A DNA stretch of 24,551 nt from Bacteroidaceae bacterium (GTDB lineage: Bacteria > Bacillota_I > Bacilli_A > RFN20 > CAG-826). Below are positions 5,310-9,979 of the stretch, one piece after another. The stretch is from contig CAVKAB010000001.1 of NCBI GenBank assembly GCA_963653985.1, positions 10,010-34,560 of the forward strand, in the 5' to 3' direction. The notes below the pieces were generated by a model, which saw nothing but the letters and a program-made list of their open reading frames with translations, was not told the DNA's origin and did not search any database. Position numbers and translations under genes: made by a program. Every line of letters begins with the position of its first letter. The stretch's first letter is position 1.

Positions 5310-5528
5310 ATGAAATATGAAAAAGAATTAAACAGTTTATCTAGATTAGTTAATTTATTAGGTGCTCTAACATTAATTTTATCTCCAATTATATCTATTG
5401 GATTATTCGTTATAGCATTTTTTATCCCCTTACATATAACTTCTCAAGATTCTTTATATAATAAGATTTTTGCAAGTATATCAATGTTACTTGCAATAAT
5501 CTTTACTATAGTTCAATTAGTTAAATAA
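5310..5528 (+). CDS. Small hydrophobic membrane protein (2-3 predicted TM segments), unknown function
   Basis: 72 aa with long hydrophobic stretches and its own extended -10 promoter; overlaps the parC 3' end by 12 bp. Confidence 0.65.
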   Translation: MKYEKELNSLSRLVNLLGALTLILSPIISIGLFVIAFFIPLHITSQDSLYNKIFASISMLLAIIFTIVQLVK

Positions 5529-8048
5529 TGATAATTGTTCATTTACTTCTTCTTTCTTTTCTTCTTTTACCTTTTTGGGTTCAACTTTAAAGTCTTTAGA
5601 AACAATTAAAGGAATAAAAGTATAAATAAACTTACTTTCAATATCTTCTGGTAATTCATTTAAATTATATTTACATCTTTTATCAATTGGAGTTATTGAA
5701 TAGTCTTCAACAGTTTGCTTAATAACATTGTGATTTTGTAATACAAAATAGAAATCTAGAGGATCTTTTTCTTTTAATTTATATGTGTAAATTAAATCGT
5801 GAGGATCACTTTTAAACGCTTTAAATAATCTTTGTTGTGCCCCAAGTCTTGCAGTTAGTTCTAAATTTTTTGTATCAAAAACCCTATAACATGCATGATT
5901 TGTAAATAAAATAATTTTATTTGTTTCTTCCTTATCAAAAGACAATAAATTTACAACATAATTATCGCTTAATTTAGAAATAGCTTTAACTCCACCTGAT
6001 TTAATACCAGTTTGACTAATTTCATTTTCGTTAAAATAAGTACAAATTCCGTTTGAAGTTAATACTAATAAATTAGAATCATTATTTAATAAAGCTACAT
6101 CTACTACTTCATCATCACCAATTAATTTCATACATTGAATTGGTTTAGAATATCTTTGAACAAAGAATTCTTTTAATGAAGTTTTCTTAATTTGCCCTTT
6201 TTTACTGATAATTCCAATTGAAATATCTTTAGAAAAATCTTCAACAACAACCGCTTTTATTAAATACTCATTTAAAGGTAAGTTAGTAAGATAATTAATA
6301 TGTTTTCCTTCATCTTTCCATTTATTTTCGATAACTTCATGTACTGGAATAAAAACAAAATTACCTAAATTTGTAAATCCTAAAATATAATCTAAAGTTG
6401 AGCATGTTGTTGCTAAAATTAAATTATCTCCTTCTTTAATACCAGGAAGTTTAGAATCACTTGCTTTATAACTCTTTAAAGTAGATCTTTTTAAATATCC
6501 ATCTCTTGTTAAAGATACATAAATAGTTTCTTTTGTGATTAAATCACGTTTAGAAATTTCAATATCATTGATTTCTTTTTCAATTTTACTTTTTCTAATT
6601 GATGGAACTTTTTTAATAATATCTTTTAGATCATTAATAATAACTTTATCAAGTTCCTTAGGATCATGAATTACTTTATCACAGAAATTAAAGAATTCTT
6701 CTAATTCTTTCTTTTCATTTAAATAAATATTAACATCAGTGTGTGATAATTTATATAATCTAATATTTAAAATAGCTTCTGCTTGAACATCACTAAATTT
6801 ATAAATAGACATTAATTTTTCTTTAGAATCTTCTTTATTAACGCTATTTCTAATGATTTTAATAATTTCATCGATAATATCAACCGATTTTAATAATCCA
6901 TCTAAAATATGAAGTCTTGCTTTAGTTTTATCATAATCAAATTTATATTGTTTTAAATTAATTTCTCTTAAAAAATCAATATAAACATCTAAATATCGAG
7001 TTAACGATAAAGTTTCAGGATGCTTATCACAAATTGCAACAATATTAGCATTGTAATTAACTCTTAAATTTGTTTTATTTAGTAAATATTGTAAAACTAC
7101 ATTTGGATTAATTTCTTTTTTTAAATCAATAACAATGTTGATTAAATCACCACTAGAAAGATCATTTACTTCATTAATACCATCAATTTCTTTGTTTTTT
7201 CTAATTTTATCAATAGAAAATACAAGATCCTTTTTATAAATACCATAAGGAATTTCACTTACTATAATTTCATTATGATCATTATATTCTTTTATTTCGT
7301 ATTTACTTGTAATTTGAAATTTTCCTCTACCAGTTTCATACATTTCCTTAATTCCATCTACTCCAGAAACAATTCCACCAGTAGGAAAATCAGGACCTTG
7401 AACTATTTTCATTAAATCTTCAATATCACATTCAGGATTGTTGATTCGATAAATAGTTGAAAGACACATTTCTCCAAGATTATGTGGAGGAATAGCTGTT
7501 GCTATAGCAACAGCAATACCATCACTACCATTAACAAAAAGATTTGGAAATCTTGCAGGTAAAACAACTGGTTCAAATTCATCATCAGAGAAATTTAAAG
7601 TCATATCAACAGTCTTTTTATCTAAATCTTTTACTAAATATTCACTTACTTCTTCAAGTTTAGCTTCTGTATAACGATAAGCAGCTGCTGGATCATCATC
7701 GATTGATCCGTTATTTCCTTGAAAATAAACAAGTGGTTGATTCATTTTCCAATTTTGGGATAAACGAGTTAACGCATCATAAATTGAAGTGTCTCCATGT
7801 GGGTGAAATCTACCCATAACATCACCAACAATTTTTGCACACTTTTTTGTATTTTTATCATATGTATTTCCAGTGTTAAACATAGTATAAATTATTCTTC
7901 TTTGAACTGGCTTTAAACCATCTCTGGCATCTGGAATTGCTCTATCTTGAATAACATATTTTGCATAAACAGCATATCTATCACTCATTAATTCATCCAT
8001 TGGTTGAGAAACAATGTTTTCGACAATTGCTTTTTCTTTTGTTTTCAT
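5517..8048 (-). CDS. parC: DNA topoisomerase IV subunit A
   Basis: DGLKPVQRR, HPHGD, AAAYRYTE (catalytic Tyr). No intact GyrA box (QxRGGxG). plsY-parE-parC context. Confidence 0.9.
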   Translation of the reverse strand: MKTKEKAIVENIVSQPMDELMSDRYAVYAKYVIQDRAIPDARDGLKPVQRRIIYTMFNTGNTYDKNTKKCAKIVGDVMGRFHPHGDTSIYDALTRLSQNWKMNQPLVYFQGNNGSIDDDPAAAYRYTEAKLEEVSEYLVKDLDKKTVDMTLNFSDDEFEPVVLPARFPNLFVNGSDGIAVAIATAIPPHNLGEMCLSTIYRINNPECDIEDLMKIVQGPDFPTGGIVSGVDGIKEMYETGRGKFQITSKYEIKEYNDHNEIIVSEIPYGIYKKDLVFSIDKIRKNKEIDGINEVNDLSSGDLINIVIDLKKEINPNVVLQYLLNKTNLRVNYNANIVAICDKHPETLSLTRYLDVYIDFLREINLKQYKFDYDKTKARLHILDGLLKSVDIIDEIIKIIRNSVNKEDSKEKLMSIYKFSDVQAEAILNIRLYKLSHTDVNIYLNEKKELEEFFNFCDKVIHDPKELDKVIINDLKDIIKKVPSIRKSKIEKEINDIEISKRDLITKETIYVSLTRDGYLKRSTLKSYKASDSKLPGIKEGDNLILATTCSTLDYILGFTNLGNFVFIPVHEVIENKWKDEGKHINYLTNLPLNEYLIKAVVVEDFSKDISIGIISKKGQIKKTSLKEFFVQRYSKPIQCMKLIGDDEVVDVALLNNDSNLLVLTSNGICTYFNENEISQTGIKSGGVKAISKLSDNYVVNLLSFDKEETNKIILFTNHACYRVFDTKNLELTARLGAQQRLFKAFKSDPHDLIYTYKLKEKDPLDFYFVLQNHNVIKQTVEDYSITPIDKRCKYNLNELPEDIESKFIYTFIPLIVSKDFKVEPKKVKEEKKEEVNEQLSLFN

Positions 8049-9979
8049 TATTTCATCTCCTCGATAAATGTATCTTGTTCACTAAAATCAACAGCTTCTT
8101 CAAGCCATTCTTTTCTCTTTTTAGAATCACTACCCATTAAAACATCAATTTTTCTTTCAACAACATTGAAATCATTAATATCAACTTGTAAAAGCATTCT
8201 ATGTTCTTTATCCATAGTTGTATATTTTAATTGCCTATCACTCATTTCACCCAAACCTTTATAACGTGAAACTTCATAATTACTACCAACTTTTTTCTTT
8301 GCATCTTCTAATTCTTTATCATCGTGGCAATAATATTCTTCTACCTTTCCTTTTCCTTTTTTTGCAACTCTATATAAAGGTGGCATTGCAATAAAAACTC
8401 TTCCTTCAGTAATTAAAGGTTTCATAAAATTATAAAAGAAAGTTAAAAGTAATGTTTGAATATGTGCACCATCAGTATCAGCATCAGTCATAATAATAAT
8501 TTTTCCATAATGACTATCACTAATATCAAAATCTTTACCATAACCAGCTCCAACTGTATTAATAATTGTAGCAAATTCTTGATTTGCTAATACTTTATCA
8601 ATTGTTAATTCGTTACAATTTAAAGGTTTACCTCTTAAAGGTAAAATTGCTTGATATTTTGGATCTCTTCCCTTTTTTGCAGTTCCTCCAGCACTATCAC
8701 CTTCAACAATAAACAATTCATTTAAAGCATATTGTTTTGAGGAACAAGGAGTTAATTTATCGCTTAAAATAATAGATTCTTTATTTTTCTTTTTACTTCT
8801 AGCTTCTTCTTTTGCTTTTCTAGTAGCAAGTCTTACTCTTTGAGAATCTAAACATTTTTTAACTAATTCATTGCTAAAAGTTTTATTTTCATTTAAATAA
8901 TAAGTAAATTTGTTATATACCAAATTAGCAACTGAAGTCATCGCTATTTGACTCCCTAATTTTGTTTTTGTTTGGCCCTCAAATTCAGGATCACCAATTT
9001 GAACAGAAATAATTGCAATGATTCCTTCTCTAATATCATTTCCTTCTAATTTAATTTTACTTTTATTTAAATTATTAGCATCGATATATTCATTAACTGC
9101 TCTTGTTAATCCTGCTCTAAAACCAGATTCATGAGTTCCACCATCAATTGTTCTAACATTATTTACATAGCTTTTGATATTTTCATCATAAGTATCGTTA
9201 AAATATTGGAAAACAACTTCTGTTTTAATATCTTCTTCTTCACCACAAAAATAAATAGGCTCTCCAATTGAATTTTTACCTAATCCTAATTCATTAATAT
9301 AGTCTTTGATACCATTTTCATAATGAAATTCATCTTTTTTATTAGTTCTTTCATCAACTAAAATAAAATGGACTCCTTTTAATAAAAATGCGCTATCTTT
9401 TAAATGATTTGCAATTCTATCATAATCAAATTCAACAGTTGAAAAAATTGACTTATCAGGTTTAAAAGTAATAACAGAACCATGTTTTCCACTAGTACCT
9501 AAAACTTCAAGTGGAGTTTTTAATTTTCCACCTTTTTCAAAAGCAATATGATAGATTTTACCATCTCTATAAATGACACAATCAAAAAATTCACTTAATG
9601 CGTTAGTAACACTACTACCAACTCCATGTAATCCACCACTTGATCTATAAACTTTATTATTAAATTTACCACCACTATGTAAAGTTGTTAAAATAACTTG
9701 AATTGCTGGTAAATTATATTGGGATTGAATTCCACACGGAATACCTCTACCTTCATCAGCTACAGTAATACTTCCATCTTTATGAATTGTCACTGATATT
9801 TTGTTACCAAAGCCATTTAAAGCTTCATCAACTGCATTATCAACAATTTCCCATACTAAATGATGTAATCCATAAGTATTTGTACTTCCTATATACATTG
9901 CAGGACGTTTTCTAACGCCTTCAAGACCTTCTAAAACCTTGATGCTGTCAGCATCATAATTTACTAATTCTTTTTCCAT
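8048..9979 (-). CDS. parE: DNA topoisomerase IV subunit B
   Basis: RKRPAMYIG, EIVDN, GLHGVG, EGDSAGG, PLRGK, DADTDG, YKGLGEM. TAATG stop/start overlap with parC; divergent from plsY. Confidence 0.9.
   Translation of the reverse strand: MEKELVNYDADSIKVLEGLEGVRKRPAMYIGSTNTYGLHHLVWEIVDNAVDEALNGFGNKISVTIHKDGSITVADEGRGIPCGIQSQYNLPAIQVILTTLHSGGKFNNKVYRSSGGLHGVGSSVTNALSEFFDCVIYRDGKIYHIAFEKGGKLKTPLEVLGTSGKHGSVITFKPDKSIFSTVEFDYDRIANHLKDSAFLLKGVHFILVDERTNKKDEFHYENGIKDYINELGLGKNSIGEPIYFCGEEEDIKTEVVFQYFNDTYDENIKSYVNNVRTIDGGTHESGFRAGLTRAVNEYIDANNLNKSKIKLEGNDIREGIIAIISVQIGDPEFEGQTKTKLGSQIAMTSVANLVYNKFTYYLNENKTFSNELVKKCLDSQRVRLATRKAKEEARSKKKNKESIILSDKLTPCSSKQYALNELFIVEGDSAGGTAKKGRDPKYQAILPLRGKPLNCNELTIDKVLANQEFATIINTVGAGYGKDFDISDSHYGKIIIMTDADTDGAHIQTLLLTFFYNFMKPLITEGRVFIAMPPLYRVAKKGKGKVEEYYCHDDKELEDAKKKVGSNYEVSRYKGLGEMSDRQLKYTTMDKEHRMLLQVDINDFNVVERKIDVLMGSDSKKRKEWLEEAVDFSEQDTFIEEMK

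Follow-up and report, generated by a model that had tools for sequence, protein, structure and literature searches.

In a 24,551-nucleotide stretch of the genome of a Bacteroidaceae bacterium (assembly GCA_963653985.1, contig CAVKAB010000001.1, positions 10,010 to 34,560; the whole analysed stretch is referred to as the window), the gene for subunit A of topoisomerase IV (Topo IV), parC, encodes a protein whose charged C-terminal tail is tipped by QLSLF, a putative pentapeptide for binding the sliding clamp DnaN (the beta clamp). Comparison of orthologues indicates that this tip is a real, selected short motif specific to ParC, and the tail probably binds the peptide pocket of DnaN, where a modelled complex places it. 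If the tail does bind there, recruitment of Topo IV to replicated DNA is strongly to be expected; the mechanism as a whole, in which ParC, as a client of DnaN, would carry Topo IV to DNA that has just been replicated, appears likely on the sequence and modelling evidence taken together. As part of this explanation, the ParC proteins of most sampled families of the phylum, which includes the mycoplasmas and Erysipelotrichales, are likely to be DnaN clients as well, to judge from their sequences.

The parC gene (5517..8048, minus strand) encodes 843 residues, with a breakage-reunion domain at about 36-475 and a beta-pinwheel C-terminal domain (CTD) reaching to about 816. Translation of the open reading frame (ORF) from 8048 to 5517 terminates in ...KVEPKKVKEEKKEEVNEQLSLFN and the stop, and the C-terminus reads ...SKDFKVEPKKVKEEKKEEVNEQLSLFN: QLSLF (Q838-F842; 5523..5537, minus strand) is preceded by EEVNE and followed by N843 (codon 5522-5520) and the stop codon (5519-5517). 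The translation thus bears out a reading made earlier from the DNA letters, here called the sequence-only reading, that ParC ends in QLSLF-N after a charged linker, with the motif at 5537-5523. The tail as a whole, comprising linker, motif and N843 (residues 817-843 plus stop; 5517..5600, minus strand), is delimited by an AlphaFold2 model and by tail lengths in the family; its 27 residues are charge-balanced, with seven D/E and seven K/R. The AlphaFold2 model, built from a 52-sequence alignment, has a mean predicted local distance difference test (pLDDT) score of 85.4 and its last strand at 814-816; past residue 816 there is no secondary structure, and pLDDT falls below 50 at 829-839 and 841-843, so that in the model QLSLF sits exposed on a disordered end. 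The strict pattern QL[SD]LF occurs twice in the 1084 ORFs of the genome, at the end of ParC and in the interior of a protein that we take from its signature to be DinB-like, and residue frequencies predict 0.43 matches at any position and 0.017 in the final 13 positions of an ORF. QLSLF also satisfies the clamp-motif consensus Q-aliphatic-x-[L/M]-[F/L], which is published together with a hexamer class (PMC11139829; papers are cited here and below for the portions covered).

All of the 41 relatives searched have a match; 40 ParC loci were read, one genome with only a fragment being left out, and since two loci run off their contigs, 38 complete ends were obtained. A class-wide draw of 150 scored genomes supplied 110 further ends (the 30 best-scoring loci and 80 across families, picked before the tails were known), to give a total of 148 complete ParC ends from 33 families (our labels mark genomes G, contigs C, loci L and families f). 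A phylum-wide search brought up the group already obtained at class level and contributed little more. As an outgroup we used 61 genomes around a Halalkalibacter genome, of which 26 match at E<=1e-250; the top 20 are clear ParC, and the six others were excluded, five of them carrying a GyrA box (QxRGGxG, the pattern we take to mark it) and one, L298, lacking it.

Within the window's family, 32 of the 33 complete ParCs end in [QK][LIVM][SDE][LI]F, the forms being QISIF (24), QVSIF (2), QISLF (2), QLSLF (2), QLSIF (1) and QLDLF (1), with a single exception, PSLFDD. The sequence-only reading had called the motif perfect; QLSLF is indeed present, but it is a local variant (2/33), the commonest form being QISIF (24/33). 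When these 32 proteins are aligned on the motif, Q and F are conserved at 100% and S at 97%, as against 16-47% for linker positions -44 to -7, none of which exceeds 47%; the motif is therefore kept relative to a variable linker, as the same reading had proposed to check. Tails in the family are 27-140 residues long, and many orthologous tails are acidic, unlike the charge-balanced tail in the window. Residues after the pentamer are also conserved (D 84%, D 75%, G 66%, D 72%), and in the ends read the motif is followed by up to about 10 residues or by none, the last residues being variable. A homologue search found 1080 matches, and all of the 120 listed, many of them near-duplicates, are motif-ended (QISIF 60, KVSLF 54 and six singletons).

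Elsewhere in the phylum the tails end in QQTLF, QLELF, QMDLF, RFDLF or KISLF, in the hexamer-like QLILDF, QIALDL or QLEFDL, or in sequences of the TIDDFL/ISFDDLF type; both published motif classes are spanned, the pentamer (QLSLF, QQTLF, QLELF) and the hexamer-like (QLILDF, QIALDL, QLEFDL). Four families (f9, f16, f21 and f24; 20 genomes) have no motif-type end and merely 0-13 residues beyond the CTD, compared with 24-140 residues in the other families: tail and motif travel together across families. The idea that such a tail belongs to the lineage of the window is thus too narrow in scope, since motif-tipped ParC tails occur across most of the families sampled in the phylum and, outside it, in the single Bacteroidota ParC examined, that of Parabacteroides distasonis (n=1), which has an acidic linker and ends in QMKLFDE. 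Mariniplasma anaerobium ParC ends in RFDLFDDNDE; Mesomycoplasma hyorhinis ParC has a long tail with the end IDSLLKKFDK, and the motif is absent from a Burkholderia plasmid ParC. A FastTree tree of 69 sequences (up to two per family, three for f1, eight Bacilli and three GyrA) has weak backbone support and splits the Bacilli, and it does not resolve the direction, gain or loss, of the change.

Three further observations concern these ends. Family f14 (for example L060, L069 and L072) has tandem units, QISL[LE]DID and then, about eight residues on, an [MT]IDDFL-like end; the spacing of the second unit recalls what we take to be that of the PCNA-interacting peptide (PIP) box. Families f16 and f24 (G049, G092, G064 and G078), with tail-less ParC, have degenerate ends on the DNA polymerase PolC (GIFRFL, SFGLF, SVSLL, VNYLL) and a DnaN pocket that looks ordinary. 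Outside the phylum, the excluded L298 (G294) ends in QFSLF plus an acidic stretch.

The tips of the ParC tails resemble, at the level of sequence, the clamp motifs of PolC from the same genomes. A five-position profile was trained solely on 56 PolC C-terminal tails, with the 95th percentile of shuffled ParC tails as threshold; 74 of 148 ParC tails lie above it, as do two of 40 GyrA tails and two of 20 core-Bacilli ParC tails, and ParC scores higher than GyrA of the same genome in 38 of 40 pairs. The window ParC ranks first by this profile among 1084 ORF ends, at 17.5 bits against 10.95 for the next. The 56 PolC ends of the phylum range over pentamer, hexamer and Q-less forms just as the ParC tails do, with trailing D/F residues too, and one of them carries QISIF. 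PolC of the window genome itself ends in DITLFDLSAF, which indicates that a presumed clamp-binding protein can carry a Q-less variant. A three-class regular expression, devised after the tails had been viewed and hence descriptive (the PolC-trained profile being the fair test), matches 108/148 ParC, 52/56 PolC, 1/40 GyrA and 0/20 core-Bacilli ParC ends (shuffled: 16%, 26% and 3.5%). The 40 GyrA ends are acidic, variable and without a tip. GyrA of one f15 genome (G063; L358) ends in EQLTLLGE, a clamp-like tip, and the f15 ParC tail is not clamp-like. Crude signature scans of the window genome for other clamp clients found no motif in DnaE, LigA or PcrA and a weak internal match in PolA; in the portion of DnaE covered by the scan (G000:C7:13954-16809, minus strand, G000 being the window genome), no clamp motif could be recognised.

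DnaN of the window genome (G000:C160) has 373 residues, and its closest relatives in the PDB are Gram-positive clamps. A complex of DnaN with ParC 809-843 was modelled with ESMFold2 without alignments and with three controls, and was judged against a score mark that 51 of 78 solved complexes attain, as do 2 of 108 mismatched pairs. The DnaN-ParC tail complex scores 0.63 and the best control 0.02, a result that may reflect the program's memory of clamp-peptide complexes already solved. At least 97% of contacts are common to the runs; the partner pLDDT is at least 46, and the fold is uncertain. The modelled contacts run from ParC 834-842 to DnaN T179, G181-L184, P247, I252, N326, M350, P352, L366 and T368-Y373, and in the model these match by motif position the E. 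coli clamp pocket (T172, G174-L177, P242, V247, N320, V344, V360, M362-R365; PMC11139829). For B. subtilis DnaN, binding of a QLSLF peptide has been measured at 3.1 µM (bioRxiv 10.64898/2026.05.27.728225). Among 31 aligned DnaNs of the phylum the pocket is conserved, and no clear pattern of co-variation with motif type was seen.

Several points weigh against clamp binding, or against its generality. The genomes are related, so that the counts above are not independent and are descriptive figures rather than p-values, and half of the ParC tails (74/148) lie below the PolC-profile threshold. Complexes of clamps with peptides have already been solved, and the docking model accordingly shows likeness, not binding. 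The pocket loop of the genus DnaN, TDGARL (G000:C160; G008), has Ala at the position of the E. coli pocket residue His175, where most of the 31 aligned DnaNs have Tyr or Phe. Ile at motif position 4, found in 27 of the 32 family motifs, is off-consensus (QISIF), and Ile at this position weakened peptides for the E. coli clamp (PMC11139829). About 22 ParC tails end in [ST]-hydrophobic-DD-F-L, such as TIDDFL, and the long tails of families f15, f28 and f32 show no clamp-like motif, suggesting that a different partner may be bound by some tails. The four families named above lack the tail, as do core Bacilli, where 20/20 outgroup ParCs end right after the CTD and 14 of 15 named ParCs lack a tip (the exception, Lactobacillus iners, L221, ends in SDLFD); the ParCs of B. 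velezensis, S. aureus and E. faecium are likewise tail-less. Topo IV is thus not generally dependent on the tail.

A rival reading is that the conserved tip docks some other partner, namely ParE, the ParC CTD in the manner of a GyrA-like regulatory tail, FtsK or another segregation protein, its likeness to clamp motifs being partly coincidental. The acidic and hydrophobic residues conserved after the pentamer (D 84%, D 75%, G 66%, D 72%) would fit such a role, as would the many tails of the TIDDFL/ISFDDLF type, which fall outside the published clamp consensus, and candidates are at hand: gyrase has a regulatory C-tail for which contact with GyrB has been proposed, ParC of E. coli has FtsK, MukB and SeqA as binding partners (PMC8216471), and FtsK is present in the window genome. 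Yet the Q-bearing tips have the exact spacing of the two published clamp classes and a variant spectrum that mirrors PolC, the trailing D/F residues occur on PolC tails too, and GyrA tails of the same genomes are acidic yet tipless (1/40 by regular expression, 2/40 by profile). We therefore consider another partner rather unlikely. It is improbable, too, that the tail binds DnaN for a purpose other than recruitment for decatenation, whether to keep Topo IV away from the fork, to clear cleavage complexes that have stalled or to couple the enzyme to clamp unloading. E. coli delays Topo IV behind the fork and so keeps a cohesion window (PMC7803763), and contact with the clamp might serve to time the enzyme or hold it back; in known clients, however, the role of the clamp motif is to anchor the protein where it acts. 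Precatenanes, moreover, form where clamps have been loaded and, as we take it, are retained behind the fork.

That the motif arose by chance, or as a by-product of the gene overlapping it or of a C-terminal degradation signal, is very improbable. The sequence-only reading had pointed to a 12-bp overlap with an ORF on the opposite strand, and this overlap exists: a small convergent ORF (5310..5528, plus strand; 72 amino acids, two hydrophobic stretches, no Pfam match) covers the last 12 bp of parC, including the codons of L841 and F842. The ORF is probably a real small membrane gene as judged from its sequence, with homologues 87.5% and 42% identical in L002 and L003 and convergent ORFs of similar size in about ten more loci of the genus. 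Short hydrophobic ends are, moreover, frequent, and shuffled ParC tails match the loose regular expression in 16% of cases. Against this, seven genus loci that lack the opposite-strand ORF (L007, L008, L012, L013, L016, L017 and L022) keep the motif intact, the end of the ORF, where there is one, varies in position between -12 and +13 bp around the parC stop, and merely 0.017 strict terminal matches are expected in the proteome. Conservation imposed by the overlap alone did not hold, and we rejected the motif as an overlap artefact; a degradation signal sits poorly with a motif placed 0 to about 10 residues from an end whose last residues vary, unlike a fixed terminal tag. On these comparisons chance and overlap are largely refuted. 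ORFs of 69-87 amino acids occupy this position at the parC end in about half of the genus loci.

The protein of ORF 8048-5517 is, by its sequence, ParC, a Gram-positive Topo IV subunit A with predicted decatenase activity, because its best NCBIfam match is parC_Gpos (787 bits, against 691 for gyrA), parE lies upstream, no GyrA box was found in its sequence, and a separate GyrA bearing that box is encoded on another contig (G000:C9). The score is 26 bits below the curated parC_Gpos cut-off of 813.25, and several relatives likewise fall under it. The gene for subunit B, parE (8048..9979, minus strand; 643 amino acids), lies directly upstream, its stop codon sharing base 8048 with the parC start, and has parE_Gpos as best match (827.5 bits; cut-off 899.95). 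Catalytic R125 and Y126 are invariant in the 52-sequence alignment; the closest structure is 9a68, an integrative ParC-ParE model (806 aa, E 6e-85), and a homologue named Candidatus Onthovivens sp. is 51% identical across residues 500-843, which would place the genome in the RFN20 group of Bacilli, relatives of the mycoplasmas and Erysipelotrichales. Domain layout, parE-parC operon and catalytic R125-Y126 are common to the window ParC and the known Gram-positive subunit (TIGR01061; 9a68; S. pneumoniae ParC55 structures). It differs by its tail from the ParCs of B. velezensis, S. aureus, E. faecium and the 20 core-Bacilli genomes, which stop right after the CTD.

According to the mechanism that we favour, the flexible charged linker beyond the beta-pinwheel CTD would carry the pentapeptide, which would dock in a free peptide pocket of DnaN. 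The ParC2ParE2 tetramer would have two such tails, and with a peptide affinity of 3.1 µM, the value for the B. subtilis clamp, these could add avidity to a weak, micromolar contact. Clamps accumulate behind the fork, as in the clamp zones of B. subtilis, and Topo IV would become enriched on clamp-bearing daughter duplexes there and at fork convergence, the sites of precatenanes and catenanes. What we infer here is that the tail binds in the cell, that avidity contributes, that Topo IV is recruited behind the fork and that decatenation is affected. In E. coli, ParC binds SeqA, MukB and FtsK (PMC8216471), in place of which the clamp itself would serve as adaptor. The window genome, which is 90% complete, encodes FtsK and has no match to SeqA; all 16 candidates scored for SMC (TIGR02168) gave no match either. 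With at most seven candidates scored per genome, SMC was found in 39 of 80 genomes and was not found in 19/19 genomes of the window's order or in families f10, f16, f19, f22, f24, f25, f26, f31 and f33; clade-wide loss of condensin in the order is possible on these searches. The tail as compensation for missing SMC was considered and rejected as a simple rule: the motif families include some with SMC (f11, f12, f17) and others in which it was not found (f1-f8, f19, f22, f26), and the rule fails also among tail-less families, SMC being found in f9 and f21 and not found in f16 and f24.

Known clamp clients offer the closest parallel. B. subtilis PolC carries a QLSLF identical to the pentapeptide of the window ParC, and E. 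coli Pol II, Pol IV and Pol III alpha carry their motifs at the C-terminus (PMC11139829, PMC12309361); ParC likewise has its motif at a disordered C-terminus, both classes occur across its orthologues, and the same pocket is used in the model. The carrier here is a type IIA topoisomerase subunit, for which binding is predicted. In the portions covered, a clamp review (PMC11139829) contains topoisomerase, ParC and gyrase 0 times, PMC9690074 lacks ParC and in the replication row of its partner table gives topoisomerases for PCNA only, and bioRxiv 2025.08.20.671105 does not mention ParC. A literature search, judged from titles and the starts of abstracts and excluding subscription papers, found no report of a bacterial Topo IV-clamp interaction, and no papers were found on a ParC-DnaN link in mycoplasmas or Mollicutes.

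Other systems are alike in part. An unstructured C-tail has been assigned to gyrase rather than to Topo IV (PMC8216471), and the ParC tail resembles the acidic regulatory C-tail of GyrA in being an unstructured, charged extension of variable length past the beta-pinwheel. GyrA of these genomes, however, has no conserved hydrophobic tip, whereas the ParC tail is tipped; and the GyrA-type tail is acidic, without positive charge, whereas this one is on ParC, with 7 acidic and 7 basic residues in 27. A role of the tail in modulating how the CTD binds DNA could coexist with clamp binding. The adaptors of E. coli (SeqA, MukB and FtsK; PMC8216471, PMC11253446, PMC7803763) have the same proposed purpose, to place Topo IV on newly replicated DNA, but there recruitment uses adaptors that bind ParC (the CTD for SeqA and MukB), and the window genome has no SeqA or SMC match. 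Eukaryotic Topo II alpha has a putative PIP box and an AlkB homologue 2 PCNA-interacting motif (APIM) for PCNA (PMC2742182, citing Niimi et al. 2001), the evidence being co-localisation, Förster resonance energy transfer and a modest mutant effect (PMC2742182). As in the proposed ParC-DnaN contact, a post-replicative decatenase is tied to a sliding clamp by a short motif; clamp and motif differ, and the tails are non-homologous. The logic of clamp clients and the eukaryotic precedent are known; what is new is the carrier, an enzyme that the texts covered do not name among bacterial clamp partners.

Whether direct tethering of Topo IV to the clamp is widespread and repeatedly used in bacteria, including most families of this phylum and Bacteroidota, we regard as evenly poised. 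If true, it would be the bacterial analogue of the Topo II alpha-PCNA link, overlooked because ParC of the commonly studied species stops at the CTD, and the list of beta-clamp partners would gain a new enzyme class. The role of B. subtilis topoisomerases in termination is called poorly defined in a 2026 review (PMC13220808). Cultured carriers of tipped ParC tails are Mariniplasma anaerobium and Parabacteroides distasonis. A clamp-binding tail would answer how Topo IV finds precatenanes in bacteria without SeqA or MukBEF, which would be relevant to many gut and mycoplasma-related lineages, including the order of the window.

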